A stretch of 31,962 bases of DNA from a virus. Positions 1,971 to 31,265 of the stretch are shown one piece after another. Position 1 is the first letter of the stretch; each line of letters opens with the position of its first letter. Both the position numbers and the translations under genes were made by a program. The notes under the pieces are model-generated. The model made no database searches. It was not told the origin of the DNA and saw only the letters and a program-made list of their open reading frames with translations. Location: IMG/VR virus record IMGVR_UViG_3300045988_073522, positions 1-31,962 of that record, one strand, 5' to 3'.

Positions 1971-2013
1971 TTTTGTTAAAATATATTAATTTATAGGTTA
2001 GTATCTAAACACA

Positions 2014-2036
2014 AATAGGGAGACTTACTCCCTATT
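2014..2036 (-). terminator. Stem-loop AATAGGGAG-N5-CTCCCTATT, followed on the minus strand by TGTGTTT
   Basis: Perfect 9-bp inverted repeat read directly. Sits between element copy 1 and the ATG at 1970. Confidence 0.4.
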
Positions 2037-2040
2037 AAGT

Positions 2041-2089
2041 GTCAAGTTTTTTACTCAAATTTAGTAGTTAAAATAAATAAAAACTGACA
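2041..2089 (-). repeat. Conserved intergenic element, copy 1 (49 nt)
   Basis: Plus strand: gtcaagttttttactcaaatttagtagttaaaataaataaaaactgaca. The first 17 nt are identical in all four copies; the terminal TGACA is the inverted complement of the leading TGTCA. The minus-strand reading contains TAAATTTG (TAnnTTTG). Confidence 0.8.
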
Positions 2090-4805: not shown

Positions 4806-4894
4806 AATTAGCGCTTTTTAGTATAAGTAAATATAGAAATTAACTTTCCATTCTTGTAGTGATAAATAACTTCTGTTTCCATAAAATATAATTT

Positions 4895-5224
4895 TTAATT
4901 AATAAGTTTGTATATAACATCTATCAGCTTAGTAGATGCATCTTTTAATAATATCATAATATCTTTAATAATTGGAGTCATAAATGCTAATAGTGCAATA
5001 TACCCAACCATTAAAATTGAAAATTGACTTGTAATAAGAATATATATTAATCCAATTCACCAAGTCATACATAAACTGCAATCTAAAGGTTTTAGTCTTC
5101 AATCTTCTTTATAAGGTATACCTTTAAATAGTCTTTTTCAAATACTGTGTTTAAAACTATCCAAAGCCCCAGATAAATCAATTATAAAGACTATTATTAC
5201 TGCTATTATAAATAATTCTAACAT
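4895..5224 (-). CDS. Small membrane protein (109 aa, about 3 hydrophobic segments)
   Basis: Absent from the track because of TGAs at 5138-5140, 5099-5101 and 5057-5059. ATG at 5224, TAA at 4895-4897. Hydrophobic runs 'LELFIIAVIIVFII', 'MTWWIGLIYILI' and 'ILMVGYIALLAF'. Confidence 0.6.
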
Positions 5225-5463
5225 AATCTCTCTCTTATTTGTTTAATAAATCTTTGAATTGTAGTATGACTAATTCCTAATATTCTTCCCACTTCTCTAT
5301 AACTGTGATATTCAGCATATAATATGATTACTGTCTTATCTGCCTTATTAAGCTCAAGTCATTTTGGATATATACTTAATAGTCTATCATCCATATTTGT
5401 AAACATACTATAGTCTATTTCATACTCAGTAAGTAAATCGTCAATATTAATCTTCCGTTTCAT
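5218..5463 (-). CDS. Sigma-70 region-4-like HTH protein (81 aa)
   Basis: Absent from the track (TGA at 5359-5361). ATG at 5463, TAG at 5218-5220. 'VIILYAEYHSYREVGRILGISHTTIQRFIKQIRERL' resembles sigma region 4.2 / LuxR-type HTH. Confidence 0.55.
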
Positions 5464-5755
5464 TTAATCAATCCTCCAATTCGTCATTTTGTTGTTCAAG
5501 TGGTTCTTTAACAATCTCATAATATTTCTTATAGGTATAGTAATATCTACTTGTTTTACTAAACCAATAATTCTTAAATAATCTTGTAATCCAAAATTTC
5601 AATTCATTTTTGCTATCAAGCTGATTTAATTTTGGATTTGAATACTCTAGTATTTCTACAAAAATCATTTGAACACAGTCATCATCTGCACCAAATTTTT
5701 GCTTAAGTTCCATAATAAATGGATAGTACTTTTCTACAATTTCGTTATTACTCAT
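5447..5755 (-). CDS. Sigma-70 region-2-like protein (102 aa, ECF-like)
   Basis: Track ORF 5468..5755 ends at a TGA. Read-through adds WLNETED and then TAA at 5447-5449. 'DDCVQMIFVEIL' and 'LKFWITRLFKNYWF' resemble regions 2.1-2.4. Confidence 0.55.
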
Positions 5756-6242
5756 ATGTTCACATATATCCTCCTGCTGTTTTTCGCTGCCCTTTAAGAA
5801 CCTTTACAATATTTCTAGATTGTATATTTAGTTCTCTCTCAGCATCTATTGCTGAATCCCATCTTTTAATAACTATTCCATTTAGTAATTGCAGTATTGG
5901 TTTCTTATGACTATATCCAGCTCGCAGATTATGAGTTCCATAATTATTATTATAATTATAAGTACACCATTCTAAATTACTTACATTATTATTTGATTTA
6001 TTTTCATCCTTATGATTTATACAAGGATAGTTATTCGGATTAGATATAAAAGTTTCAGCTACTAATCTATGTATATAACACTTCTTTTTCAAATTTTTAT
6101 TATATAATGTTACTGTAAAGTACCCATTAGTTTTTACTTGAGGTTTTAACCTCTTTGGAACTGATGCTCTTAAACTTCATATTGAGCCATCAGTTCCAAT
6201 TTGGTAGTTTTCAAAATTAAGTATTCTTTTATAGGCTATCAT
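5748..6242 (-). CDS. HNH homing endonuclease, copy 1 (164 aa)
   Basis: ATG at 6242 (the track start at 6092 is a TTG). TGAs at 6177 and 5760; TAA at 5748. N-terminal 'FENYQIGTDGSIWS', HNH core 'HRLVAETFISNP..INHKDENKSNNNVSNLEWC', tail 'GGYMWTYE'. Confidence 0.8.
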
Positions 6243-6905: not shown

Positions 6906-6943
6906 AATTTTATTATTTATAAGTTAATACTTGTTTATTATTG

Positions 6944-6999
6944 TACTACAAAGATAATACATTTTTATTCAATTTCCAAATTTTTTAGGTATTATTTTT
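6944..6999. repeat. Left arm of the inverted repeat (promoter duplicate)
   Basis: The reverse complement shares the blocks AAAAATAATACC, TTTGGAAATT and ATGTATTATCTTTGTAGTA with 7591-7646. Confidence 0.7.
6949..6980 (-). promoter_or_regulatory. Bacteroidetes-type promoter: TTTG-N20-TATCTTTG
   Basis: Minus-strand reading is tttg gaaattgaataaaaatgtat tatctttg, about 40 nt upstream of the ATG at 6905. Matches the TTTG(-33)/TAnnTTTG(-7) consensus with a 20-nt spacer. Confidence 0.5.
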
Positions 7000-7056
7000 A
7001 TTATTTTCAAAAAAATATTACTATTTGTATTTTTATTATATATTAATAAAAACAAT

Positions 7057-7542
7057 ATGATTTACGTAATTAAATTAACTAAAACGAATTTTATTAAAGT
7101 TGGTTACACTACTAATATAAGTGGCAGACTAACTGCTTATAAAAATACTATTCCAAATGAGATGATAGAATTTTTTATAGCAAAAGAAGGAAATAGAGAT
7201 GATGAAAATTATTATAGAGATAAATATAGAGCATATAAAACTAAGAGTAATTCAGAATGGTTAAAACTTCCAGATGAATTAATTGTAGAGCTATTAGCAG
7301 ATTTTAAGAGTGCAAATAATATAAAAATAAATAAACAAAGCAAAAAAGAATGATATAATGAGAATATAGATAAATTAGTAGAATTGTGCTTATCTGGAGT
7401 ATCATTAAATAGAGCTGCAATTCAATTAAATGCACTAAATTGAGACTGAATAAAATATGCTAATCAAAGATACGAAAAAGAGAATGGCAAAAAATTAACA
7501 AAACTTTGGGTAAGAAAAATCAAGAAAAGTTTTGCAGAATAA
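7057..7542 (+). CDS. GIY-YIG-superfamily (T5orf172/MUG113-like) protein with a C-terminal HTH-like tail (161 aa)
   Basis: Track ORF 7057..7353 stops at a TGA. Read-through of TGAs at 7351, 7441 and 7447 gives '...LNWDWIKYANQRYEKENGKKL...' up to TAA at 7540-7542. 'IYVIKL..IKVGYT..R..Y....SEWLKL' fits the family. Confidence 0.6.
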
Positions 7543-7561
7543 AAATTTATTATTATATTTG
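7531..7561 (+). promoter_or_regulatory. Bacteroidetes-type promoter: TTTG-N19-TATATTTG
   Basis: tttg cagaataaaaatttattat tatatttg, read directly. Overlaps the end of the 7057 gene. Confidence 0.4.
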
Positions 7562-7590
7562 TAGTGTAAAGAAAAAAATAATTTTTTATT

Positions 7591-7646
7591 AAAAATAATA
7601 CCCGAATTATTTGGAAATTTAATTTTTATGTATTATCTTTGTAGTA
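7591..7646. repeat. Right arm of the inverted repeat (promoter duplicate)
   Basis: Shares a 19-nt identical block atgtattatctttgtagta (7628-7646), plus tttggaaatt and aaaaataatacc, with the reverse complement of 6944-6999. Confidence 0.7.
7610..7641 (+). promoter_or_regulatory. Bacteroidetes-type promoter: TTTG-N20-TATCTTTG
   Basis: tttg gaaatttaatttttatgtat tatctttg. Same boxes and spacing as the minus-strand promoter at 6949-6980. Confidence 0.5.
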
Positions 7647-7669
7647 TGAAACTAAAACTAATAATTCTA

Positions 7670-7695
7670 GGCAGGTGAAAATCCTGCCACTTTTT
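7670..7695 (+). terminator. Rho-independent-type terminator GGCAGG-N7-CCTGCC + ACTTTTT
   Basis: 6-bp GC-rich stem followed by a T5 tract on the plus strand. Lies downstream of the 7610-7641 promoter and upstream of element copy 2. Confidence 0.55.
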
Positions 7696-7705
7696 GAATC
7701 TTACT

Positions 7706-7754
7706 GTCAAGTTTTTTACTCAAATTTAGTAGTAAGAAAATAAAAATATTGACA
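7706..7754 (-). repeat. Conserved intergenic element, copy 2 (49 nt); the only copy inside the plus-strand block
   Basis: gtcaagttttttactcaaatttagtagtaagaaaataaaaatattgaca. The first 28 nt are identical to copy 1. Same orientation as the other copies even though both flanking genes are on the plus strand. Confidence 0.8.
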
Positions 7755-7784
7755 AAAACTTTAACTATTTAAATTATTAAAATT

Positions 7785-9506
7785 ATGAAAACATATTTAA
7801 ACAATTTGATTAATGAGTTGCCAACTAACTGTTTATTTGATAAAGGAAAAGTTGGATGTGGAGGAACTTCAATGGCAATTGAATGTAATAAGCCTTATGT
7901 TATTTGTGTTCCATTTACTAGCTTAGTTGAAAATAAACTTCAACAATATCCAAATGAAAGACGTACTGAGAAGATATTTGGAGTTTATGCTGGAGTTACT
8001 ATTAAAGAGATTAAAGATTACGTAGAGAGTGTTAAATGTCCTAAAATTATTGTTACATATAACTCACTTCCAAAAGTTATTTCTGCAGTTAATACTAAAG
8101 AATATAGTTTATTAGTAGATGAATATCATATACTATTTAATCAGTATAGCTTTAGAAAGGATGCTATTAAACCTGTTTTAGAGAACTATGAATTATTTAA
8201 AGATTTTACATTTATGACTGCTACTCCTCTTGAAGAAGAGTTTGTATTAGATGAATTAAAAGATTTAGAATTAGTAAAGCAAGAATGGGATGATGTTATT
8301 GAAACCAAGGTACAAGCCGTTAAATGTAAGAATGTTGAAGCTTCAACTATTAAATTAATTAATGCTGTTCTTAATAATCAAGTCGAAGGTAATGTTTATA
8401 TATTTGTAAATTCTGTAGACTTTATAAAGAATCTTATTCAGAAAGCTAAACTTACAGAAGAGAATACCAGAGTTATATATTCCAAAAACAATAAAACCAA
8501 ATTATCAATTCATAATTCTACAGTATTAGATGAACCTAAGAAAATAAATTTATTAACTTCTACAGTATTTGAAGGTTCTGATATTTATGATGAAAATGGA
8601 AGAATTGTAGTAGTAAGTGATGCTCAAAAAGCACAAACTCTTCTTGACATCTCAACTTCAATCCAACAGATTGCTGGCAGAATTAGAAATAGTAAATATT
8701 TAAACTGGATAACTCATCTTTACTCAGCAACAAGATATGCAGATATTAGTTATGAAGACTTTAAAAAGAAGAATATCCAGAATATTGAGGAAACTAAGAT
8801 TGCTGTAGATGCTTACAATGCAATGCCTGAAGTTGCAAGAAAGAAACTTAAAGAATTTACATCTGATACTTATATCCAAGTAAATGATGATTTTACATTT
8901 ACATTTGATCCAAATATGGCTAAGGTAGATATTTTTAACTTTAAAGTGACAAGAGGTTTATATTCTATTAGAACGAATCTTAATAAAGAATATATAAAGA
9001 ACGGATTTAAAAAAGTAGTAGAATGTGAAGACAACTCTATTAAGATTGATTTTGAATCTGATAATAAACCATTTAAAGAACTAATTAAAGAAGTTAGAAC
9101 AGAATGGGAAAATAAATTTAAACTGAATACTCCACTCTTAAATGATGCTATTATTAAATATCCTTGGTTACCAGAAGCTATTAGTAAATTAGGATTCGAA
9201 AAGATGGCAAGCTTGAAATATTGCATTTCGGATATTAAAGATGCTCTATTAAAGAAATCAAATAAAAGTGCAGATAATAAAGCAGCTAAGAAGTTAAATC
9301 AATCAATTACTCTTGGAATGTGGTATTCTAACGCTGATATTAAAAAGTTTGTTAAAGAAGCTTATGAAATTAGTGATATTACTATTACTCCAAAAGCAAC
9401 AGAAATTGATAAATATTATGAAGTTAAAAAATGCCAGAAAAGAGTAAATGGTAAACAAACTGAAGGTTATGTAATTATTAATAAAAAGTTTGTATTTAAT
9501 AAATAA
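7785..9506 (+). CDS. Superfamily-2 (DExH-type) helicase, 573 aa
   Basis: Intact in the standard code; all 5 Trp are TGG. 'GKVGCGGTS' (Walker A-like), 'LLVDEYH' (DExH), 'FMTATP' (motif III), 'TSTVFEGSDI' (V), 'QQIAGRIRN' (VI). TAA stop. Confidence 0.75.
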   Translation: MKTYLNNLINELPTNCLFDKGKVGCGGTSMAIECNKPYVICVPFTSLVENKLQQYPNERRTEKIFGVYAGVTIKEIKDYVESVKCPKIIVTYNSLPKVISAVNTKEYSLLVDEYHILFNQYSFRKDAIKPVLENYELFKDFTFMTATPLEEEFVLDELKDLELVKQEWDDVIETKVQAVKCKNVEASTIKLINAVLNNQVEGNVYIFVNSVDFIKNLIQKAKLTEENTRVIYSKNNKTKLSIHNSTVLDEPKKINLLTSTVFEGSDIYDENGRIVVVSDAQKAQTLLDISTSIQQIAGRIRNSKYLNWITHLYSATRYADISYEDFKKKNIQNIEETKIAVDAYNAMPEVARKKLKEFTSDTYIQVNDDFTFTFDPNMAKVDIFNFKVTRGLYSIRTNLNKEYIKNGFKKVVECEDNSIKIDFESDNKPFKELIKEVRTEWENKFKLNTPLLNDAIIKYPWLPEAISKLGFEKMASLKYCISDIKDALLKKSNKSADNKAAKKLNQSITLGMWYSNADIKKFVKEAYEISDITITPKATEIDKYYEVKKCQKRVNGKQTEGYVIINKKFVFNK

Positions 9507-9520
9507 AAATATTATATTTG
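9489..9520 (+). promoter_or_regulatory. Bacteroidetes-type promoter: TTTG-N20-TATATTTG, ending 4 nt before the ATG at 9525
   Basis: tttg tatttaataaataaaaatat tatatttg, read directly at the 3' end of the helicase gene. Confidence 0.45.
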
Positions 9521-9974: not shown

Positions 9975-9980
9975 ATGAAA

Positions 9981-10004
9981 ATAGGAGGGCATAAACCCTC
10001 CTAT
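9981..10004. terminator. Bidirectional stem-loop ATAGGAGGG-N6-CCCTCCTAT between convergent gene blocks
   Basis: Perfect 9-bp stem. Located between the plus-strand stop at 9974 and the minus-strand stop at 10011, with T-rich sequence on both sides. Confidence 0.6.
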
Positions 10005-10010
10005 TTCTGT

Positions 10011-10580
10011 TTAAGCGTATTTTCAAATGTATCCTTTAGATGTTTGCTTTAATCCACTACATACTCTACTAATGGCTCCTCTATCAGTTCCTACTGCATT
10101 AGCCGCTTCAGTACAGCTTTCATATTCCTTAATAAAGTTTCCCTCTAAATCATATTGTAAAACCTTTTTACATCTTTTCTTATTATGAATTTCATTACTA
10201 ATCTTCCAAGGCAAACTATATAAATGTTTCTTACCTTTATTTGATTCTGATAGTTTCTTTCTTCATTCTGTAGAAAATTTTATTCCATAGTTGCCACCTT
10301 CACCTCCTGGCTTCAAGTTTAAACACATTGGATCTACTTCCCATTTATCTCCTATTAATTCATACTCCTTTTTAGATAATTCATCTGAATCATTACAGAA
10401 TGCAATTATTTCTTTTTTATATGCATTAGGAAATCTTTTATAGTAGTTCTTAATAATTTTACCAGAACCTTTATATGGATCTTTATATGGGTCTTTTCCT
10501 TTATAAATACGCTTACCAATGTAATATTTTCCTCTCAATGAGCCAGCAGTTAAATAAATTTTATAACAATAGTAAAACAT
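10011..10580 (-). CDS. GIY-YIG homing endonuclease, copy 1 (189 aa)
   Basis: Track ORFs 10263..10580 and 10023..10214 share a frame. They are joined across TGA 10263 and extended past TGA 10023 to TAA 10011. 'YCYKIYL..GKYYIGKR', NUMOD3-like 'WRKKLSESNKGKKH', C-terminal 'SKGYIWKYA'. Confidence 0.8.
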
Positions 10581-11032
10581 TATATAATTGTAAATTTCTG
10601 TCTTCTCTGCAAACCCTCTTTATTCTTCAGTCCTAAATGAATTCAACTAGCTATTCCATTTCTAGGTTTCTCATAAATAAGTTGATCAAAATCATACTTT
10701 TCAATAGCTTCAGTAATCCAAACCTGAAATTCTTTCATTTGGCCGTTACTTGGAATTATATCTGCTGCATATCCTGTTAGATGGGCAGATGTCAAAGATC
10801 CTCCTACAGCTTTATTAAGCTCATTACATCTATAACCTGAATTCACACTTATTGCTGGATTCCCCAACCGATTAACATCACAATACTCTGCCCAATCACT
10901 TCTTAATGGGTCTAAAAGTTTCTCGACTAACTCTATAAGGTGTTCAGTAATCTCTTTATTTGGAGTATTATCTATCTTCTTAATAGAAGCTGTATCAGAT
11001 CTTGTTAATTCACTAATAGTAAAATATTTCAT
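10580..11032 (-). CDS. Endolysin, zinc peptidase M15 family (150 aa)
   Basis: 'SGYRCNELNKAVGGSLTSAHLTGYAADI' gives the H-x6-D zinc ligands. The track ORF stops at TGA 10643. Read-through gives 'IAS-W-IHLGLKNKEGLQRRQKFTII' up to TAA 10580, supplying the expected C-terminal His. Confidence 0.8.
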
Positions 11033-12276: not shown

Positions 12277-12954
12277 TTACTTACTCTTTTTATTGTTATC
12301 ACTTGAAGGGAAATCATAAGCTCTTTGCAGAGGACCTTCACAAGAATTATATCTCCAACCTTTACCTCTAGCTCCACCTAACCAAATAGTGCAAGATGAA
12401 CTTGAATACATATTTGGATACATATCTTTAAGAGGTTTATAAGAATACAATTCAGGAAAATCATTATAATATGTAATTACCCAATTTTGCAATCTAGTTT
12501 TAAAGAAATCTGCTTTATCTCTATAATACTTCTTAATAAGATTAACTTGATTAATATCAGAAGTTAAATCTTTCTCATCATCAGTCCTCATAACCCCAAA
12601 ATTACTCAGCTTAAATGAGATGGGTATAGTAATCTCACTTAATACTTGATAAAGTAAATAAGGCTGAATATAGTAATCTAGCAATTCTTTATATCTATGA
12701 TTTTCTGGGTCATCTATTGAAGTAGGATCATAAATAGGAGGTTCTATTGGATGAACTGGTTTATTTGGATCTTTTCAATCAATTACTAATTTCTGAATCT
12801 TTTCTAAGAGCTTAGTTCCAATTAATGACTGAAGCTCAATATCTTGTGCAAGTTTAATTGCTGACTGAAGATATTTACCAGAAACATTATTGTCTAAATT
12901 GGATTCTGATTTTATATAATCTTCAGATATTAATAGTACATTTCTATATTCCAT
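12277..12954 (-). CDS. Hypothetical protein (225 aa), possible head-tail connector/head-completion protein
   Basis: ATG at 12954 (the track start at 12684 is a TTG). TGA at 12775-12777; TAA at 12277. 'SGKYLQSAIKLAQDIELQSLIGTKLLEKI' resembles gp6-like connector N-termini; the functional call is weak. Confidence 0.6.
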
Positions 12955-13597
12955 AATAATATTTATAATTTTTGCAGGGTTTATTTTTTCTACAAGATCT
13001 AGATATACTAGAAGAATCTACATTATTCTTCTCTCCAGCTTCCTTAGCTGATTTATACTCACAAATAAAATTACCATCTAAATCATACTTATATACTTTT
13101 TTGCACTGACGTTCTGAAATTAGTTGTTTTTCTTTATCTGAGAGTTTCATACCTTTATTTCAAGGAGTTTTGCCTAATCTTGCCTCCCTCATTTTACGCT
13201 TGCTTTCATCTGAATGCTGTTTACCATAAAATGAGTTATTTTCTCCTGATCTTATAATTCTAAGACTATCTTTATAATCTTGTGAAAAAGAATATCCACA
13301 AGTACCGTCTCCTCCATCAGTTAAATTATACCCATATTTTGGATTTCTAGTATTATACTTATAAATCAGAATCTTTTCTAAAGTCTTAGCACAAGCTTCT
13401 GGAAGATTATCTCTAATTATAATATGCTCAAAATTATCTCAACCATATTTTTTAATTGCTCTGCTAAAATAAAGATTATTCTTGTAACCTTGACCTTTAG
13501 TTCCCCATCTATTATTTAAAGTAAGTGATGTTATTCCAAAATATAATTTATTATCAGCTATATTCTTATGGCAGTACACTGTATAATTATTCAACAT
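12944..13597 (-). CDS. GIY-YIG homing endonuclease, copy 3 (about 217 aa)
   Basis: Only the C-terminal 68 aa are in the track. Upstream read-through of TGAs at 13160 and 13439 gives 'YTVYCHKNIADNKLYFGIT', 'YGWDNFEHIII' and 'YGYNLTDGGDG'. ATG at 13597 (or 13606); TAG at 12944. Confidence 0.75.
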
Positions 13598-14678
13598 TTT
13601 CTGCATTGTCTGACATTCCTTTTGGAGTTAAACTAAATGGTTCAATAGTAATACTATTCTTAATGCCGAAGATTTTATCAAATGAGTCACAAATTTCTGA
13701 TTGTATTGGGCGTACAAAAGTACGATTATATAGCTTAAATGCTTCATTAAACTCATTTTCATTAAATCCTGAGCTATAGTTTAAACCGAACAACGAAGGA
13801 TTAGCTCTGAAGGCACAGAATATTTGATCTCTGGTTCTCTCAGATAATGATTGATATTTCTCATCAAAATCATCAGAATCTAATCTTTCAATAGTAGTCT
13901 TATTTGCCTCATCTGCATTATATGAAATCAATATTCTGCCAGCATTCTGATAACCAGAGAACTTCTCATTAATATTCCTCTCAATCTCCTCTCTAATTTC
14001 ATCTGTAGGTTCCCCATTATTAAAGTTAATAATAAGATTACCCATAAATCCATTATTGATGTTATTTAAATGGAATTCATTAATATTTTTCTCAGTTTCA
14101 CAAGATAAAATAGCAGCTCCATAAACAGGAATAGGATATACTCCTCTTGTTATATAACCTTTATTATAAAATATACTAGCTGGATTTTCATCCCCAGCTC
14201 CAAATTTTGGATATTTTATAGCTTTTACAGACCAAGCTGTCCAATCAGTTGCATAATATAATATATCATTCTTTTCGCTTGACCTTACATTCATAAAATC
14301 AATATGATATATCTCTGCAACTCTTCCGAGCATATCTCTAATTACTTGGATAGCATAACCTCCAAATATCATCTTATCAATAGTGATTTTTCTCATTATA
14401 TCAACTATTGTTTCACCTTTCTTGTTTACAACTACTTCAAATCCTGGAGCATTACATTTAACATCGTTACCAACAATAAAGTCAGCAGAACCATTAATAA
14501 TGGATTGGAGAGTGGCAACATTTAAATATAAATCCCATAGATATAATGGATATTTGTTATCTTCTCCCCACATTACATAATCTTTTCCCCTCACTTTAGT
14601 TTCTGTAGGTAATACGATATTACTTGCAATAAATGGATCAATAGCACTTAACTGAACTTTTGTTTTATTTTCGCTCAT
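13587..14678 (-). CDS. Putative portal protein (363 aa)
   Basis: Intact ORF with all 4 Trp as TGG. N-terminal 'VMWGEDNKYPLYLWDLYLNVATLQSIINGSADFIVGNDV' recalls PBSX/HK97-type portals. Called from motif memory only. Confidence 0.55.
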   Translation of the reverse strand: MSENKTKVQLSAIDPFIASNIVLPTETKVRGKDYVMWGEDNKYPLYLWDLYLNVATLQSIINGSADFIVGNDVKCNAPGFEVVVNKKGETIVDIMRKITIDKMIFGGYAIQVIRDMLGRVAEIYHIDFMNVRSSEKNDILYYATDWTAWSVKAIKYPKFGAGDENPASIFYNKGYITRGVYPIPVYGAAILSCETEKNINEFHLNNINNGFMGNLIINFNNGEPTDEIREEIERNINEKFSGYQNAGRILISYNADEANKTTIERLDSDDFDEKYQSLSERTRDQIFCAFRANPSLFGLNYSSGFNENEFNEAFKLYNRTFVRPIQSEICDSFDKIFGIKNSITIEPFSLTPKGMSDNAENVE

Positions 14679-15057
14679 AACTTACGTATGTATTAGGTTT
14701 GTCGTATTGATAATTATTATTCTCATAATCTCCAATTCTTATTAATCCTGTTCCCAATATAGGTATTGGTTTACCAGCAACTAATATCTGAGTACCATTA
14801 GTAAGAGTATTATTATATGTAACCAGAATAACTGGATTGCCATATAACTCTGATCTAAATGGATTGTTTACATCAACTATAACTTGAAATTTATTTGGAT
14901 TAGTAAATAAAATATATTGATATTCACCGTCTCTCATTCCTTCTTGAAGTGTAATATCAAACTTATAGTAGATATTCTCAGAATAATTCTGATTTTCAAG
15001 ATTAAATGTATAAACTTCTTTAGTAGTTGTATTTTGCATTAATAAAGTATAATTCAT
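14665..15057 (-). CDS. Hypothetical virion protein (130 aa)
   Basis: ATG at 15057, TAA at 14665, no TGA. First gene downstream of element copy 3. Confidence 0.6.
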   Translation of the reverse strand: MNYTLLMQNTTTKEVYTFNLENQNYSENIYYKFDITLQEGMRDGEYQYILFTNPNKFQVIVDVNNPFRSELYGNPVILVTYNNTLTNGTQILVAGKPIPILGTGLIRIGDYENNNYQYDKPNTYVSYERK

Positions 15058-15133
15058 ATTTTACAGCAATTTACATTAGTTTTACATATCTTTTTCTTAA
15101 AATATAAACCAATTTACTAATGTATTAAAATAA

Positions 15134-15159
15134 TTAAAGGAGACCTAAGCCTCCTTTAA
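15134..15159 (-). terminator. Stem-loop TTAAAGGAG-N8-CTCCTTTAA, followed on the minus strand by TTATTTTAAT
   Basis: Perfect 9-bp inverted repeat, 1 nt from element copy 3. Confidence 0.4.
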
Positions 15160-15160
15160 T

Positions 15161-15209
15161 GTCAAGTTTTTTACTCACTCAAAGTACTAAGAAAAAATAA
15201 AAACTGACA
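15161..15209 (-). repeat. Conserved intergenic element, copy 3 (49 nt)
   Basis: gtcaagttttttactcactcaaagtactaagaaaaaataaaaactgaca. In minus-strand sense it begins 5 nt after the TAA of the upstream gene. Confidence 0.8.
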
Positions 15210-15213
15210 AAAA

Positions 15214-16233
15214 TTATGCTGATGCTAAAGTTCAGTTTTTAGATGCAGCTAATGATTTCTGTTCCTCAGTAAGTGCATTATAAACATCTGCTGCAAATTG
15301 AATGGTTTGAGATACTTCTCCAGTTAAATCAGCAGCTTTATTTAGAATATTATCAATAGCCAAAGAATTAAGACTTGGCAGTTTACTTAAATCTAAATAC
15401 GTTTTTAACCCTACTATTCCTCCCATATCAGTTATATAAGTATTATCGGAAGATCAGCTATAAAATGGCCAATTAGAAAAGTTTTGTCCTGCTGCACTTA
15501 TATTTGTAACATCTCATTCAGGAAGTTCAGTTATATTATCAGGCAATTGTTCGTAGAATCCTCCTATTTCCATATTAATTACATTACCCGTAATATTAAA
15601 TTTCATAGTTGGTAATATTGTCACTCTATCTTTTTGAACTCCAGTAAACATACTAGACATAAGAATTGAACAACTTGGTCTAGAACTATTAAACTCAATT
15701 TCATTTACATTAATAACAGAGTATGCAAAAGTATTGGTAAAACTAGAATTACCATTCTCTTCAATAATAAATTTTTGAATTATTGGAGAACTGTCTTGTA
15801 TTTGAGTATTATAAAAAGCAAAGTTAGCACTGCTACAATATATTTCTGCTGGAAATAAAATATCAGAACATCTAATTTGATAAAAAGTATACTCTAAATT
15901 ATAATTCAAAATATTAAATAGACTATTTAAATTTATTGTTATGCCATTTAAATTTGCTTCTTGAAAAAATCATTTTGTAGAACTAGTATCATCAAATGAA
16001 TATGTAACATTATCATATTGTTCTTGTGTCATACTAGAATGTGCAAATGTTAATCCATAATCATTTAAATTAATCTTTCCTCCACTACCTCCAGAAATCT
16101 GTCCTATCTTATCTGCATAGCTTCTAAAGGTATCGGAATCTGATACAGCAACACCTTTAGCTACAATAGCATCTTTAATGGCACTCTTAGTACCTTCAAG
16201 ATACGTTAATTTATCAGAAATTGTATTTGCCAT
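15214..16233 (-). CDS. Fibre/receptor-binding-like protein (339 aa)
   Basis: Track ORFs 15970..16233, 15514..15909 and 15232..15426 are one frame. They are joined by TGAs at 15970, 15514, 15454 and 15232, ending at TAA 15214. N-terminal 'KSAIKDAIVAKGVAVSDSDTFRSYADKIGQI'; C-terminal 'EEQKSLAASKNW'. Confidence 0.75.
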
Positions 16234-16234
16234 A

Positions 16235-16756
16235 TTAGATATATTTAAATTTTACCCCTTTATAAGTGTCTGTTCTTCCTTTAAGACAATCTATAACTCT
16301 ACTATGAGTATACCCATCTATTGATGTTTCAATTGCATTTTTATATGTTTTAACTAGTAAATCATTAATAAATAGCCCTACAGGTTTACTAATTTTATCA
16401 ATACATCTATTTATTCTAGTTCCATATGTATTATTATACTTTGCATCACATCATTCTAAATTTTCTACCCTATTATCTGTCTTATTTTCATTTATATGGT
16501 TAACATATGGTAGATTGTCAGGATTTGGAATAAATGCTTCTGCTACTAGTCTGTGAACTTTAATAGCTTTAGGTTTATCTAAGCCAGATACTAGAATTAC
16601 ATAATTATAGCCATATTTATCTATATGCGGTTTTAGCTTTTTATGTATTTGTTTTCTGGTTCTTCCAATAGAATCTTTAAAAGTCAATGGGTTACTATAT
16701 ACATCTCCTGTAGAAGATACACTATAGTTAGGATAATTTGTTAATACTCTATTCAT
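16235..16756 (-). CDS. HNH homing endonuclease, copy 2 (173 aa)
   Basis: Start at ATG 16756 ([14 protein letters not shown]...). The track ORF stops at TGA 16451 right after 'RVENLE'. Read-through gives '[11 protein letters not shown]...KGVKFKYI' up to TAA 16235. Core '[25 protein letters not shown]'. Confidence 0.8.
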
Positions 16757-17408
16757 TTGGAATTTCACCATTAATTGTATCAAGAGTAGTTGAAATATTA
16801 CCAATCTGAGCTTGAATTGCTGAGATTTCTCCATCTAACTCTGTCATCTTTGTATTATATGCATCTGTAGTTACATAGTTTGATAACTCACTTTTATCTG
16901 CTTTAAGTGCAACTTCATCTTTAGTAGCTAATCCAGATACATCAGGAATCTTATTCTCTACAGTTGTAAGCTCTTCTTTAGTAGCAAAATCACTAGTATC
17001 AGGAATTTCTGCTTTAGTTGCATAATTACTTAAATCTACAGATAGTTGCAAACCTTCTCCATTTCTATGTAAAGATAGAGGTTGATTAGCTTGGAATACT
17101 TCCATCTTAGAAGTTTCTAACTCCTCAACTTCCCCTTTAAGATTAGTAATCTCTGTATTAATTGGAACAAGCTTAGCATCTATAGATTGATCTACTAAAG
17201 GAGGAACTTGATCTTCAATACTTTCTGTTACTTTAGTATTAATTAACTCTTCTGCTTTCTCCTCAGAAATGTAATTACCTTTAGGTTGGAATCTTTCATC
17301 TGCTTCAATCTTAGTATAAGAACCAACAGGAAGTTGTCCAGATTCAATACCACATTTCTTACTAACATAGAAAGTTTGTGTATTTTTAGTATTCTTAAGT
17401 ATAATCAT
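16749..17408 (-). CDS. Tail fibre protein with coiled-coil repeats (219 aa)
   Basis: Intact ORF, TAG at 16749. '[26 protein letters not shown]...' repeats are shared with the 800-aa fibre. Confidence 0.7.
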
Positions 17409-21175: not shown

Positions 21176-21218
21176 ATTATTTTTCTATAAAATATAAATT
21201 ATTCATTATGTGGTATAT

Positions 21219-21255
21219 AAACAAAATAAGGGGCAAGTAAATTAATACTCGCCCC
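21219..21255 (-). terminator. Rho-independent terminator after the tail-tube gene
   Basis: Minus-strand reading: GGGGCGAGT-attaattt-ACTTGCCCC (one G-U pair) followed by TTATTTTGTTT. Confidence 0.65.
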
Positions 21256-21266
21256 TCTTTCTGTTA

Positions 21267-22758: not shown

Positions 22759-23373
22759 TTAACCAATAAAGTTTTTAAGCTTTCTATCTATTTCTGCTAT
22801 TCCACTTATAGGAGCAGTTGTTTTATTTTCGAGTGTTTCCTCTGCTGAAAAAGCAGCACTCATCTTACTCATTTTTTCTACAGTCTTTTCAGTAGCTTCT
22901 GACTTTCCTTCAAGTTCTGCTACTTTCTTAACAAGCTTATCTACAATATCATAGAGCTCATTAATTTCGCGATGAATAGCGTCGATTGCATCAGTCTCAG
23001 TTTCTTTAACACCGTCTGTTTCAACAGCAGGATCAGCAACTTCCTCAGCTTTTACTCTCTTAGTTCCACAAGCAGCATCAACCTCAACAGTTCTCATACC
23101 CTCATCTGGATCAACTTCAGCTTTAGGATCAGTAATGGACTCTACTTTACCGTCTTTAACAACAATAGTTTTGCCATCTTCGGTAACATACTCACCATCA
23201 GCAGCAGGTGCATATTCGCCAGTATCAGTATCCATTGTATATACACTCATACCTGCCCTTAGATCCTCATCCTCACTACCATCGTAAGTTAGAACTCCAG
23301 CACTAGTCTTAACATCGTTAAATTTTGCTAAGAGTTTACTAAGTTCGATTCTCAGTTTAGTTAATTTGTTCAT
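22759..23373 (-). CDS. Scaffolding-like acidic coiled-coil protein (204 aa)
   Basis: Very D/E/K-rich with helical N- and C-terminal segments. Located between the protease and the capsid gene. TAA stop. Confidence 0.55.
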   Translation of the reverse strand: MNKLTKLRIELSKLLAKFNDVKTSAGVLTYDGSEDEDLRAGMSVYTMDTDTGEYAPAADGEYVTEDGKTIVVKDGKVESITDPKAEVDPDEGMRTVEVDAACGTKRVKAEEVADPAVETDGVKETETDAIDAIHREINELYDIVDKLVKKVAELEGKSEATEKTVEKMSKMSAAFSAEETLENKTTAPISGIAEIDRKLKNFIG

Positions 23374-23968
23374 ACTTAAATTTAAAATTTTTATGATAGT
23401 TTTGTTTATTTTTGCAACATTTTATAATAGCACTATGATCAAAATTTCCGTTTCTTTCAGCGTCCATAGCAGATTTCCAAGTGCATATATAAGTATCATT
23501 AATATCTGTCATAATTATACGTTTACTTACTTTTTCTTTCTGCTGTTCAGTTTGTTTAGTTCCCAATCTACATTCTCTTAACTTTAATTTTGTTTCATCC
23601 TTTAATACTCTTCCAGACTGTTTTAAAGACATTTTGTGTTTAGATTCTTCACTGTGTTTAAATCCAGTATTAGAACCTCCACCTTCATTTAAATTATAAC
23701 CATTATTTAATGTATCAAATAACTGAATATATTTAATTTCTGCATTATTTAGTTGTCTTTTCAATAATTCTGTAGAAGAACAACAAAAGATTTGAAGAAT
23801 TTCCCATTTAAAGTTATTGAATCCATATTTCCTAATCGCTCTATGAAAATATGTAAGATTAGAACTGTATTTATGTTCATTCTTTCTTCTCAAGAAATTA
23901 TTTGTTTGTCCTACATATTTATTGCCATTTATAAGATTTGTTGCTAGATATATAACTCCACTATACAT
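23357..23968 (-). CDS. GIY-YIG homing endonuclease, copy 2 (203 aa)
   Basis: 'GVIYLATNLINGNKYVGQT', 'RRKNEH', 'YGFNNFKWEIL', 'GYNLNEGGG'. C-terminal module 'ICTWKSAMDAE..SAIIKCCKNKQNYHKNFKFKY'. Inserted between the protease and scaffold genes. Confidence 0.85.
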   Translation of the reverse strand: MYSGVIYLATNLINGNKYVGQTNNFLRRKNEHKYSSNLTYFHRAIRKYGFNNFKWEILQIFCCSSTELLKRQLNNAEIKYIQLFDTLNNGYNLNEGGGSNTGFKHSEESKHKMSLKQSGRVLKDETKLKLRECRLGTKQTEQQKEKVSKRIIMTDINDTYICTWKSAMDAERNGNFDHSAIIKCCKNKQNYHKNFKFKYEQIN

Positions 23969-24560: not shown

Positions 24561-24640
24561 TTTTTATTAATATATAAGCTATTTTAAAAATGTAATATTG
24601 TTACAATCTTTTATTTTTATATATTTATATACTATCAAAT

Positions 24641-24688
24641 GTCAAGTTTTTTACTCAAATTTGTATCTAAGATAAATAAATTTTGACA
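24641..24688 (-). repeat. Conserved intergenic element, copy 4 (48 nt)
   Basis: gtcaagttttttactcaaatttgtatctaagataaataaattttgaca, upstream (minus-strand sense) of the protease gene. Confidence 0.8.
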
Positions 24689-24691
24689 TAG

Positions 24692-24735
24692 CACTACTAT
24701 ATAAGCACTGATAATCAGCAACTTACATAGTAGTG
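24692..24735 (-). other. Long hairpin CACTACTAT-N26-ATAGTAGTG with an inner palindrome CTGAT-t-ATCAG
   Basis: 9-bp perfect outer stem read directly. Lies between the stop of the TMP-like gene (24756) and element copy 4. Confidence 0.5.
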
Positions 24736-24755
24736 TGTCAGAAATTTTACTCACT

Positions 24756-27437
24756 TTAGAAACTTGCATTTGATTCTGTAACTGCAACTTTAGTTTGAGC
24801 ATTAGTAATATCACTCTCAACTACATAGCATTTAACAGGTTCATTTAATAAATCAGTCTCTTTATCACCAAGTAAGTTTCGAGTGTATTCTACAGGAGTA
24901 GTGTTTAAAGCAGCAGGTGCTGCAACAGATGCAGAAGCAGAAGATGCAGATGCTCCACTAGTTTCATCTACTTCTCAAATCTTTTTAACATTAGCTATAC
25001 CAGCTGCAATTGCTGCAGCAGCGGCGGCAGCACCTAAAGCTGGACCTACAACTGGAATACCAGCCATTGCAGAATAAGCACTGTTAGCTGCACTATATGT
25101 ATCAATTAAAGCTTGAGCTGTTGCGAATCCTTTACCTACTTTACTTTCCTCTCCTCATATAGTTGCCATACTTCCTGCAACCTTTGATGCTAGATCAAGG
25201 CGAGCTTTTATAGATTCTTGATATTGCTTATTAACATTTTCTCTAACTTTGTTTTTCTTATTTTCTCTGTCTATTTCATTTTCAGTTAATTGCTCATCAA
25301 TAGAATCTAATTCTAGTTTAATAAGTTTTCTCTGATCAGCTGTTAAAGTCTCATTTTCTAATTGTTTTAATAGAAAAGACTTCTGCTCCTCCAATCTTGT
25401 TTTTATTTGATTATTATATTTATCTATAGAACCTTCTTCAGTATCTGTTCCTAATAAACGATCTTTATATCCCTCTATGTCTTTTTTGCTTGAATAAGAG
25501 AACTCACCACTTAATCCAAATATTTTGGCAAATCCTTGTGTATATTGAGTTTTAGGAATTTCTAAAGATGGATCTTTTATATCATACCTTGCCTCGCGCA
25601 TTCTTTTTAACTCAGTCTGCAGATCATCTCAAGCTTTATCCGCAGCACTTTTTCTTGCATTTTCTTCATCTTCTCTAGCCTTATCTCTAATTTTCTTCAG
25701 CTCTTCTTGATGCCAAGCCTCAACTTCTTCAAGACTTCTATTATTTTTAATAGCTAGCGCTAATAGTCTAATATATTCATCTTCAAGTTCGTCTACGGGA
25801 TTTTTGGCATTTAGTCTATTCTGTAACCATACATCAAACTCATTTATTTCTTCTTTAGCCTGTGTAGTGTTATTTTTAATGACTTCTATGTCAAAAAATC
25901 CTCCATATTTCTTATTAAGCTCAGCCACATCTTCAAACATCTTTCTGAGTCTTTCTTCTATTTCTCTGTTTAAGTCTGAAAGCTCATTATAAGTGTTTTC
26001 TTTGTTTTGTTTAGTATATTCATATATCTGACCTTGATAGTCCTTCCAAAACATTGCGGTGGCTTTAAATGCTTGCCAAGCAGACGCTTCTCCAAAATTA
26101 GTATCTTCTATCTTATTTTCAAGCTCAGAACGTTTATTTAAATACTCTTCGTAGATTTTAATTGCTTGCTCCTCTATAGCTTGAGCTTTGGCTCTTGCTG
26201 TTAAAGCAGCTACATAATTTCCAGTATTATTAATAAATGCGTCTTCTGCTTGAGCTACAGTGTTAATATTTAAACCAGTCTCTTTAATCTTATCTGCATA
26301 TTTATTAAGGAACTCTTGTTTAGCATCAGCTGAATCTCCAACTCTTTCATATGCTATCTGAAGCTCTTTAAATATAGCAATAGACTTAGAAGAAATTTGA
26401 TTAGTAGCATCAGTGATAGATTTTCTAAATTCTTCTTGCTCTTTAGCAGCTGTTCTTATAGAAGATACATAATCTATTACCTTATTAATAGCTAATCCAA
26501 TAGCTGTAGCTAAAGCTATCCATACTGTTACATTACCAATAGTTTTAAGAGCTGTAGTTGCTTTTGAAAATGCTGTAGTTGCCTTAGCAGCTTGTGAAGT
26601 CCCATCTGCCAGCCCTTTCGCAGCATCTGCTTGTTTATTCAATGCTGCTGCAATTGCTGGAGAATTCCTTTTTAATCTCTCTAACTCTTCACTGGTGACT
26701 TTCATACTGTTAGCAGAATTCTTAACAGTATCATTAAATTTGCCAACTATGGGAATGGTATTAGATACACTCTTATTAGTAGCAGATATTTCAGCAGGAG
26801 TGCCCATTACTCCTTGAATCATACCTCCTTTAAAATTAATATTGGTGCCTTCTAAATCCTTGACTACTTTAGAGATATTACCTAATTCAGTTCCAACATT
26901 ACCAACAGATGTGCCAATGCCATTAAGCTTAGATGCATCAATCTGATTAAGATTTTTGGCAGCATTATTCAACCCTGTATTAAATGGAGAGATAAAATCA
27001 GTTAATTTCTTAAACCAATTACCTAAAGTAGGCAATTCTTCTAATAAATCTTTTATACCTCCAATACCTTGTACTAATGCAATAGATGACTGTAACTTAA
27101 CCATTACTTTATTTAAATCTTCTGATTCTTTCCCAAATAAAGTAATAGCAGCAGTTGCAGCTCCATATCCACTGGCCAAACCAGTGGATATTTTAGCTAC
27201 ACTTTCAAACCTTTGAGCAGTAGTTCTTGAAGATCTTGCTATCTGCTCATTAATTTTATTGAACTCTGATTGTCTTTTACCTAGTAATGCAAGAGTTTCA
27301 TTATATTCCTTAGTACCAATCTCTAAATCATTCAGAGAACTAGATAATGCGTCAATATCTTTCTTTAAAGAGTTTATTGATTTATTACTTGATTTAGTAT
27401 CAATACTAATAACCTTTTTAATTTCTGTTTGTGCCAT
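24756..27437 (-). CDS. Tape-measure-like protein (893 aa)
   Basis: Track ORFs 25629..27437 and 25155..25601 are in the same frame. They are joined across TGA 25629, then read through TGAs at 25155 and 24975 to TAA 24756. Long coiled-coil regions, hydrophobic 'VTVWIALATAIGLAI', Ala/Ser-rich C-terminus. Confidence 0.7.
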
Positions 27438-30400: not shown

Positions 30401-30793
30401 TTTAAGTCCATAGAAGAAATCTCCTAATCCTCCATATAAAGTAATATTATAAGTAATGACAGCTTGTTTTATAGATATACTATTTAATTGCATATATCCA
30501 GATTCAACTAAATAGTCATTATTATAGATTCCAAAATCAACTCGTTTTGAAGGATCAAAATATACTCCAGAGAAATTACCTTCTTTTATATGGAGAAATC
30601 TATCTAACTTATAAATCTCTCCAAAAATCTTATTATTATTTTTGTCTCCTGGAATGCTTATAGTCTTACTGAATGAATTTTTTACTATTGTTGGATTCTG
30701 AAAATCTTCTACAGTATAAGTCATTGGTAATGATATGCCTTCAGAACAATGTACTTCTTTTCCTGCAATAAATAATTTAATATTTTTACGCAT
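27437..30793 (-). CDS. Large tail/baseplate-associated structural protein (1118 aa)
   Basis: Five track ORFs (30263.., 29927.., 28601.., 27878.., 27437..) and all gaps between them are one frame. Hand translation of every gap found only TGA: 30263, 29927, 29912, 29318, 28940, 28601, 28448, 28280, 28202, 27878, 27866. ATG at 30793; TAA at 27437. Confidence 0.75.
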
Positions 30794-31265
30794 ATTTTCA
30801 AATATATCCTTTATGTTGTGAAATATTACCAATACAACACTGTCCTATATTTTGGGGAACAAACCCATATTTTTTAGTATCAGCAATTGAATTTCATCTC
30901 TTTATAAAAGTGCCATCTAAGCTTTCCTGTATTACAGGTTTTTTATTATTATTTAATCTATTTCCATAAGTAACATTATATTGAGCTGTACATCATTCTA
31001 AATTATCAACCCTATTATCCTCCTTTATCTCATTTATATGATTTACTTGTGGTAAGTTTTCTACGTTTGGAATAAACGCTTCTGCAACTAATCTATGAAT
31101 ATTGAATCACTTGCCAGACTTATTCTTTCACAATTGAACTTTTGTATATCCAGCTGGAGTATATCCACTCTTCAGTTCTTTATTGTTTTTTATAGAGAAG
31201 ACTTTACCAGTATTACTTATCTGGTAAAGTCCCTCATATCCTTTAATGTCTTTATATACTTCCAT
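30786..31265 (-). CDS. HNH homing endonuclease, copy 3 (159 aa)
   Basis: Absent from the track because of 5 in-frame TGAs. ATG at 31265: '[24 protein letters not shown]', '[37 protein letters not shown]', ending 'HKGYIWKYA'. TAA at 30786. Confidence 0.8.

Follow-up and report, generated by a model that had tools for sequence, protein, structure and literature searches.

We identified a short intergenic element, named E here, that can fold into an imperfect hairpin and is present in four copies in the 31,962-nt viral sequence under study (IMG/VR record IMGVR_UViG_3300045988_073522, hereafter the window). E is carried at five fixed sites in about 40 related viral contigs of approximately 30 kb, and it is lineage-specific. 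Its hairpin structure is well supported but not proven. We tentatively favor a role for E as an RNA hairpin of transcript boundaries, which would take part in RNase III-type processing or stabilization of the transcripts, or would modulate their termination. A transcribed boundary hairpin would best fit the available evidence because of the covarying stem, the strand preference of the RNA fold, the position of E relative to stop codons and terminators, and the retention of its core. We infer from the sequences both that RNA is the active form of E and what this RNA would do.

To our knowledge, little is known about the organization of transcription in uncultured, stop-codon-recoded phages of gut-type Bacteroidota. 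Together with its adjacent terminators and the TTATATWTTA boxes described below, E provides a concrete map of five transcription-unit boundaries. Moreover, it is a small, mutable hairpin suited to reporter tests. Should E prove to be a processing or antitermination signal, it would give access to the control of late genes in this lineage; should it be just a palindrome prone to recombination, it would nonetheless mark the places of exchange in these highly mosaic genomes.

Gene Map and Copies of E in the Window

The genes of the window are broken under the standard genetic code. With TGA read as a sense codon, the genes tile, and ORFs of 100 aa or longer hold 10,580 amino acids instead of 6,422. 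TGA was aligned with TGG-encoded Trp in the motifs of paralogous homing endonucleases (NLEWC, GYIWKYA), indicating that TGA codes for Trp in the window. This recoding had not been recognized in the earlier gene reading, and any annotation of the window depends on it. With genes called under code 4, the non-coding share of the window was 3.9%, all four copies of E were intergenic, and leftward genes spanned the whole window except for a region at about 7.0 to 10.0 kb.

We searched the window for the 17-mer GTCAAGTTTTTTACTCA shared by the copies. The window contains exactly four copies (starts at 2041, 7706, 15161, and 24641), all on the plus strand and none in coding sequence, and no further copy was found there when up to three mismatches were allowed. 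Shuffled controls gave 0.28 expected matches, and none of 100 shuffles reached four. A covariance model (CM) run on the window retrieved these four copies alone (E-values of 2e-13 to 8e-11), the next-best matches being the opposite strands of the same copies. Hence, the four conserved intergenic copies are real. When the four regions were aligned, the conserved block was followed by a variable hexamer, GTA, an A-rich stretch, and (C/T)TGACA. The inverted pentamers TGTCA/TGACA that had been reported to bound the elements are indeed present.

The four copies, each with the exact 17-mer, are predicted to form the hairpin on the minus strand. E1 (positions 2040 to 2089, TGTCAG...TGAGTAAAAAACTTGACA on the hairpin-forming strand) is located 2 nt past the stop codon of 2092-2187, a small ORF with a protein product conserved among relatives. 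It matched the CM with 79.8 bits (E-value 1.8e-13) and had an RNA fold of -10.2 kcal/mol (z -2.7). E2 (7705 to 7754; 69.9 bits, RNA fold of -9.9 kcal/mol) has plus-strand genes on both sides, to which it is antisense, and ends 30 nt before the ATG of 7785-9506, confirming that the second copy lies inside a plus-strand block. Its orientation was identical in the 11 related contigs that cover this site. E3 (15160 to 15209; 72.9 bits), 4 nt past the stop codon of 15214-16233, adjoins a predicted terminator (T3, see below), and the two fold together at -26.2 kcal/mol (z -5.4). Finally, the 49-nt E4 (24640 to 24688; 66.6 bits) lies between an 893-aa gene (24756-27437), 67 nt past its stop codon, and the protease gene. 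The minus-strand stop-codon contexts described before for E1, E3, and E4 are thus correct under code 4.

Predicted Hairpin Structure and Compensatory Changes

The 32 alleles compared are predicted to fold as imperfect hairpins on the TGAGTAAAAA strand, which corresponds to the minus strand of the window and is referred to as the sense strand. In sense order, TGTnnn is followed by a U-rich run, a loop containing (T/A)AC and five to six variable bases, TGAGTAAAAA(A), and nnnACA. The basal stem of 6 bp (TGTnnn/nnnACA) is followed by a small bulge and by an upper stem of about 10 bp, formed between the U-rich UUUUUAUUU on the 5' side and the conserved UGAGUAAAAA on the 3' side, with two G.U pairs. 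The loop of 8 to 16 nt holds the conserved (U/A)AC. The earlier note had seen the inverted repeat in the terminal pentamers but had missed the covarying hairpin that extends beyond them.

Basal arms were counted directly, in place of a covariation score from the CM alignment. Among the 32 distinct alleles, the arms were TGTCAG/TTGACA in 11, TGTCAA/TTGACA in 8, TGTAAC/GTTACA in 5, TGTCTA/TAGACA in 3, and TGTCTA/TTGACA in 5, the latter having one mismatched basal pair. Joint changes were found in the three pairs beside TGT/ACA (CAA/TTG, AAC/GTT, and CTA/TAG), and none of the 32 alleles combined AAC with TTG or CAA with GTT. Since arm types vary between sites within one genome, the pairing appears to be maintained rather than the arm sequence or a protein half-site. 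Independent compensatory events are few and come from two lineages. In the CM-fitted alignment (150 matches, 43 distinct), 87% of the cells pair, compared with 44 to 56% when the partners were slid. The formal covariation statistic of this alignment is weak, with changes on both sides at one pair only, partly because the aligner gapped the arms of clade 2.

The structural case for the hairpin comes from the relatives, not from the isolated window copies. Window alleles form 16 to 17 pairs with a bulge or internal loop and fold modestly in isolation (RNA, -9.9 to -11.5 kcal/mol, z -1.8 to -2.8). The common alleles of relatives at sites 1 and 5 have stems of 16 to 20 bp (-13.7 to -16.4 kcal/mol), and the TGTAAC/GTTACA allele at site 4 of the clade with 81% protease identity folds into a perfect stem of 21 bp (-22.9 kcal/mol, z -7.9). 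RNA folding favored the TGAGTAAAAA strand in all 18 alleles tested, by about 1 to 7 kcal/mol, because the Gs of UGAGU pair with U. With DNA parameters, folds of the window copies were weak (-4.7 to -6.3 kcal/mol, z about -1), without strand asymmetry. The invariant TGAGTAAAAA arm is conserved beyond what pairing alone requires.

Position and Proposed Role of E at Transcript Boundaries

Sense-oriented E is found 0 to 10 nt past a stop codon at sites 1, 3, and 5, as well as at site 4 of clade 2. Another clade lacks 15214-16834, so that its E of site 3 immediately follows a different upstream gene. Terminator-like GC-rich hairpins, as predicted by a terminator scan, adjoin three of the four window copies, all on the same side of their E. 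T1 (2014 to 2036, minus strand) is a GC-rich hairpin with a U tract located 3 nt sense-downstream of E1, and it is kept beside E in both orientation alleles of site 1. T2 (7670 to 7697, plus strand) consists of a GGCAGG/CCTGCC hairpin and a plus-strand T tract, and is conserved in relatives whose upstream genes differ. T3 (15133 to 15160, minus strand), also predicted by folding, has a 12-bp hairpin and a U tract, and directly adjoins E3. These are three of the five convincing terminators of the window; the other two (21228-21257 and 9978-10007) have no E, and there is no GC terminator at E4 or site 5.

The usual order for leftward genes is a stop codon, E, a GC-rich hairpin with a U tract, a TTATATWTTA box, and an ATG. 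As the earlier note had suggested and our data support, E is a conserved, phage-specific intergenic element at transcription-unit boundaries. It would be one part of a composite cassette between units, with a spacing of 0 to 10 nt from stop codon to E and of 0 to 17 nt from E to the GC-rich hairpin. E would be transcribed as the 3' end or an intercistronic part of long leftward transcripts and would act as RNA. Its most likely role would be that of a double-stranded processing or stabilizing site, such as those cut by the host RNase III in T7; alternatively, the hairpin may modulate the adjacent terminator.

Several observations do not sit well with this proposal. Of the six site alleles, four read in the direction of the local genes, but E2 and the inverted allele of site 1 are antisense, and the transcript-boundary role leaves these two unexplained. 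When folded, the plus-strand RNA at E2 gave no E hairpin. The inversion of site 1 in 12 to 13 contigs is incompatible with a strictly strand-specific RNA role at all sites. Moreover, RNase III would not explain the invariant UGAGUAAAAA/TGAGTAAAAA arm. The five mismatched alleles and the two terminators without E also count against it, as does a clade with 85% TerL identity in which the copies of sites 1 and 2 are degenerate (TTTAAAG..., with TTACA or TGAGA replacing TGAGT) and T1 is missing; E is thus dispensable in this clade.

Distribution of E Among Related Viruses

An 18-mer search of IMG/VR retrieved 56 stretches, nearly all of them from contigs of approximately 30 kb in one data set. Searches with the protease and TerL added two clades, with 81% protease identity and 82 to 89% TerL identity. 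Megablast of the first 25 kb of the window against cultured phages gave no match, and the closest TerL of a cultured phage found by tblastn had less than 30% identity, leaving no annotated relative to borrow from. The covariance model and a repeat search found no E in the distant relatives examined (TerL 42 to 43%, protease 32 to 33%). Of note, one distant relative (L141) has repeated Bacteroidota-type promoters in place of E.

The exact 18-mer gave only 25 unrelated, chance-level single matches in 185,579 bacterial and archaeal species genomes (GTDB representatives), and a host repeat, a prophage source, and a CRISPR-repeat mimic with the E core were rejected on this basis. Rfam covariance models did not match E in the window; raising the E-value to 1 returned two chance snoRNA matches elsewhere. 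A looser pattern, TTTTTATT-N14-24-TGAGTAAAAA, matched terminator T runs followed by ATGAGTAAAAA gene starts outside the family, not hairpins. As this IMG/VR search found no second phage group carrying E, a partner protein could not be inferred from co-occurrence. A coding function was also rejected, ATGAGTAAAAAG in clade 2 opening just a short, non-conserved ORF.

In relatives, the length of E ranges from 45 to 51 nt with a run of five or six A residues, and variants of the 17-mer include TGAGTAAAAAGGTTACA and TGAGTAAAAAGTAGACA. Hence, the fixed-length spacer and the invariant 17-mer described from the window hold for its four copies but not for the whole family. Likewise, the co-orientation of the window copies is not general: site 1 has the orientation of the window in 14 contigs and the opposite one in the 12 to 13 contigs mentioned above, and four contigs carry a fifth copy, absent from the window, on the other strand. 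This fifth copy comes 2 nt past the stop codon of the 7785-9506 homologue, and the next small gene follows after 20 nt; at the corresponding place, the window has a host-type (Bacteroidota-type) promoter.

Signs of Exchange Between Copies and a Possible Role at the DNA Level

The variation between alleles also bears on another explanation, in which E is a DNA-level quasi-palindrome with little or no regulatory role, that is, a recombination-prone linker or a selfish repeat. Such a sequence would spread and homogenize by gene conversion or template switching between copies and co-infecting relatives, like the PeSL cassettes of T4-type phages. We consider it unlikely, even though the signs of exchange are several. 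At site 1, E alone has been swapped for an inverted copy of the other arm type (AAC/GTT) between flanks that are collinear and sometimes near-identical. The two orientations are different alleles, in arms and loops, and not flips of one sequence; an inverton was rejected for this reason. Hybrid alleles such as TGTCTA...TTGACA occur, and the fifth copy is present in only some contigs. The loop variants AAATTT, which shortens the stem, and AAAAGT segregate at sites 1, 2, and 4 among near-identical genomes, indicating non-allelic conversion. The same aberrant 5' arm (TTTAAAG) is shared by two sites of the TerL-85% clade, and identity jumps were observed beside E3 and E4.

However, a mobile or selfish repeat would have to account for the presence of just four to five copies, always at the same five sites, and for the lack of matches above chance level in the bacterial and archaeal genomes. 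No transposase was found, and inspection of the flanks of all E alleles revealed no direct repeat that would represent a target-site duplication. Breakpoints of identity occur at many gene boundaries without specific enrichment at E, so no E-specific signal can be claimed, and indels such as 15214-16834 do not lie between two direct copies. The core of E is retained where the flanking intergenic DNA has diverged beyond alignment between clades, and the bias toward G.U pairs would be left unexplained.

Promoter or Activator Site as an Alternative

Judged by its sequence, E does not look like the promoter of the next unit. Four Bacteroidota-type promoters (TTTG-N17-21-TAnnTTTG) were found in the window at 6949-6980 (minus strand), 7531-7561, 7610-7641, and 9489-9520 (plus strand). 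All are in the early region and bear no likeness to E; two of them form a 70-nt inverted repeat (6934-7003/7587-7656). None of the four was found at a copy of E in this pattern scan, which requires a -33 TTTG at a spacing of 17 to 21 nt. The earlier note had read a perfect -7 box, TAAATTTG, in the first two copies. This box is allele-specific and lies within the variable hairpin loop, where near-identical relatives have TAAAAGTG at the same sites and other alleles have TTTGAGTG, AAATATG, TTAGTTG, or TTAAAGTG. Sigma-70-type matches were fewer in the window than in shuffles, and the only one touching a copy (TTGACA-17-AATTAT at E2) is not conserved in relatives. Reading the terminal TTGACA as a sigma-70 -35 element was also rejected: a conserved -10 is missing, and other alleles have GTTACA or TAGACA in this arm.

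A phage-specific middle or late promoter, or an activator site bound by the HTH protein encoded at 5218-5463, appears quite improbable. It would account for copies located upstream of gene groups, for the lack of a host-type promoter for the late units, and for the extra copy that takes the place of the Bacteroidota-type promoter of the window in four contigs. It would also suit E2, which is downstream of a terminator-like hairpin and close to the next ATG, and an activator site could tolerate inversion. On the other hand, the GC-rich hairpin and U tract separate E from the next ATG at sites 1 and 3, the distance from E to the ATG varies from 20 to more than 100 nt, and the unit starts at 21175 and about 4891 have a TTATATWTTA box and no E. 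The -7-like box is not conserved, the different arm types within one genome argue against recognition of half-sites, and covariation points to a folded single strand. Furthermore, the sigma-like proteins proposed at 5218-5755 proved weakly founded. The early leftward operon does encode 5218-5463, a generic HTH protein with a borderline match to Sigma70_r4_2 (E-value 5e-6), but the region-2-like ORF has no detectable sigma homology, and 5447-5755 had no match in Pfam, PHROG, or PDB.

Possible Recognition by a Phage Factor

The conserved UGAGUAAAAA arm could also make E the recognition hairpin of a phage-encoded switch in TGA-recoded Bacteroidota phages, as a strand-specific RNA or ssDNA signal. 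A phage factor would bind E and couple the read-through or processing of the adjacent terminator to the early-to-late transition. We regard this as speculative and of low probability; if true, it would represent a new antitermination or processing class unrelated to nut, put, or the T7 R sites. No nuclease, antiterminator, or RNA-binding protein was recognizable among ten early-region proteins using Pfam and PHROGs.

A cis-acting antitermination RNA resembling lambda nut or HK022 put is very doubtful. After transcribing E, RNA polymerase, perhaps together with a phage protein, would read through the next terminator and join the units late in infection. A single transcript from the early promoter at 6949-6980 could in principle span all leftward units, E is 0 to 17 nt sense-upstream of a terminator-like hairpin at sites 1, 2, and 3, and its sequence-conserved arm suits recognition by a factor. 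Nevertheless, E has no similarity to boxA/boxB or put and no Rfam match, and neither Pfam nor PHROGs revealed an N- or Q-like protein. Terminators are lacking behind E4 and site 5, two other terminators have no E, and the inverted allele of site 1 would be non-functional. Least probable is a strand-specific ssDNA hairpin in replication, such as an ssi-like signal for lagging-strand priming: the four window copies are on one strand whatever the gene direction, and orientation switches across the 573-aa helicase-like gene (the 7785-9506 homologue) in the fifth-copy contigs, as around an origin, but four co-oriented copies have a chance probability of 1/8, the inversion at site 1 breaks the pattern, hairpins calculated with DNA parameters are weak and show no strand preference, and neither a primase nor a replication origin was identified.

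Comparison With Known Intergenic Repeats

Returning to the transcript-boundary role, the closest parallels in form and placement are the RNase III processing hairpins of T7 (R0.3 to R18.5). As with E, these hairpins of about 20 bp, interrupted by bulges or internal loops, recur as several related copies in intercistronic and unit-end positions, and within one phage lineage they share both sequence and structure. Most E alleles have stems of 16 to 21 bp, near the approximately 20 bp of double-stranded RNA of RNase III sites, and the intergenic position of all copies corresponds to that of such sites. The likeness is one of form and placement: E has no sequence relation to the T7 R sites, its host is probably a member of the Bacteroidota, its stem is AU-only with one strongly conserved arm, and two of its site alleles are antisense to local transcription.

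The PeSLs of T4-type phages are also conserved composite intergenic repeats, and they contain a strong sigma-70-type early promoter and flank ORFans in dozens of copies (PMC2839356, PMC4122927). In both they and the E cassettes, an AT-rich segment is joined to a stem-loop of the terminator type, putative in the case of E, and to the beginning of the following gene, with G.T pairs in the stems. Both are tied to mosaic exchange between close relatives. Hybrid alleles and common loop variants indicate exchange between the copies of E. In contrast, E has no conserved host-type promoter, it is found in four to five copies at fixed sites between core virion modules, and its conserved part is a separate AU hairpin beside the terminator. 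As E is unrelated in sequence to the T7 sites and lacks the early promoter that defines PeSLs, it belongs to neither group. We file it as a new, lineage-specific example of repeated intergenic phage hairpins, putatively regulatory.

REP/BIME and Correia elements are small palindromic repeats or MITE-like elements of bacteria. E resembles them in being a short imperfect palindrome with TGT...ACA ends, in its intergenic location, and in varying between genomes in both orientation and presence. It differs in its very low copy number, in having neither target duplication nor cognate transposase, and in being absent from the bacterial genomes searched. With regard to the housekeeping promoters of Bacteroidota (-33 TTTG/-7 TAnnTTTG), three window copies contain TAAATTTG or CAAATTTG, but this box is lost in near-identical relatives and there is no -33 element.

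Putative Start Boxes and a Half-Element Beside E

The sequence TTATAT(A/T)TTA, or a near match, is found downstream of terminators and close to the first ATG of units. At site 1, TATATTTTA (1977 to 1985, minus strand) is downstream of T1 and 6 nt before the ATG of 1482-1970, and ATATATTTTA is conserved in three otherwise divergent alleles of this site. At site 3, TTATATTTTA (15098 to 15107, minus strand) is downstream of T3 and 40 nt before the ATG of 14665-15057. At site 4, TTATATATTA (24568 to 24577, minus strand) is 62 nt downstream of E4 and 7 nt before the protease ATG, and the 81% clade has CTATATATTA at this position. Five of the six TTATATWTTA-type matches in the window are non-coding (4882-4891, 7036-7045, 15098-15107, 21188-21197, and 24568-24577). 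Because this count is not above chance (3.1 expected), we treat the box as a lead toward a possible alternative unit-start signal.

Beside E4, we also observed a half-element, AGTGAGTAAAATTTCTGACA (24736 to 24755, minus strand), read from the sequence. It resembles the 3' arm of E and is located immediately past the stop codon of 24756-27437; the clade that has E 10 nt past this stop codon does not carry it. A long hairpin (24692 to 24735, minus strand) was predicted by folding between the half-element and E4. The fold of 24689-24758 on the minus strand, which spans the half-element, reached -26.4 kcal/mol (z -4.9), with nearly all of the energy coming from this long hairpin.

Early control region, genetic code and host

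An inverted repeat of 70 nt, whose arms at 6934-7003 and 7587-7656 are 80% complementary, was found to be made up of a Bacteroidota-type promoter (TTTGGAAATT...TATCTTTGTAGTA) present in two divergently oriented copies, and the pattern TTTG-N-TAnnTTTG was also matched close by at 7531-7561 and 9489-9520. Together, these promoter copies and the two nearby matches mark an early control region and suggest that the host belongs to the Bacteroidota. TGA is read as Trp across the whole window, in early-region and virion genes alike, and ARAGORN found no tRNA genes in the 32 kb. The protein encoded at 10580-11032 was labeled as M15-type peptidoglycan peptidase-like by inspection of its sequence, which would argue against a wall-less host using code 4.

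Downstream of the two early plus-strand promoters, we observed a terminator-like hairpin within approximately 25 nt, the second copy of the AU-rich hairpin element (E2) and then the 573-aa helicase-like gene. The resulting leader of approximately 137 nt (7648-7784) resembles an attenuator or, alternatively, a short RNA.

Candidate late signal

The box TTATAT(A/T)TTA occurs on the plus strand at 7036-7045 and on the minus strand at 4882-4891, 15098-15107, 21188-21197 and 24568-24577, with a variant, TATATTTTA, at 1977-1985 (minus strand). Five of the six TTATAT(A/T)TTA matches sit in non-coding DNA, which represents 3.9% of the window. In each predicted unit, the box precedes the first start codon by 6 to 76 nt, and it is a candidate for a late promoter or for a signal that starts translation.

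Homing-endonuclease-like genes and mosaicism

Seven free-standing homing-endonuclease-like genes were counted in 32 kb, several of which are missing or swapped in relatives. Inspection of the protein sequences gave three HNH paralogues (5748-6242, 16235-16834 and 30786-31265), which correspond to the 150-nt repeat family D1, and three GIY-YIG-like genes (10011-10580, 12944-13606 and 23357-23968); a family search supports only the seventh label, the T5orf172 gene at 7057-7542. A 51-aa gene replaces the latter in the related contig L126, and 15214-16834 is missing in the clade of contig L047. The population is strongly mosaic, with identity jumping at many gene boundaries. In contig 134784 (L079), 5' of the protease gene, window-type sequence and the type of the clade at 81% protease identity cross over approximately 45 nt downstream of E4, the fourth element copy. 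The exact 18-mer core of the element was also found within 7388-7440 of an unrelated 50-kb viral contig (L027), beside a tRNA-like T arm (GCAGGTTCAAGTCCTGCCC), an occurrence that we judged to be a chance match.

Overlapping and small ORFs

The region-2-like ORF at 5447-5755 and the HTH/region-4-like ORF at 5218-5463 overlap by 17 nt (5447-5463), an arrangement also present in contigs L126 and L135. They could represent one protein split in two, or a sigma-like protein with a frameshift. Finally, a small conserved ORF at 2092-2237 (31 aa from ATG) begins in a different frame beside the end of 2235-2876; it may be a gene in its own right, or it may extend the upstream protein through a frameshift.
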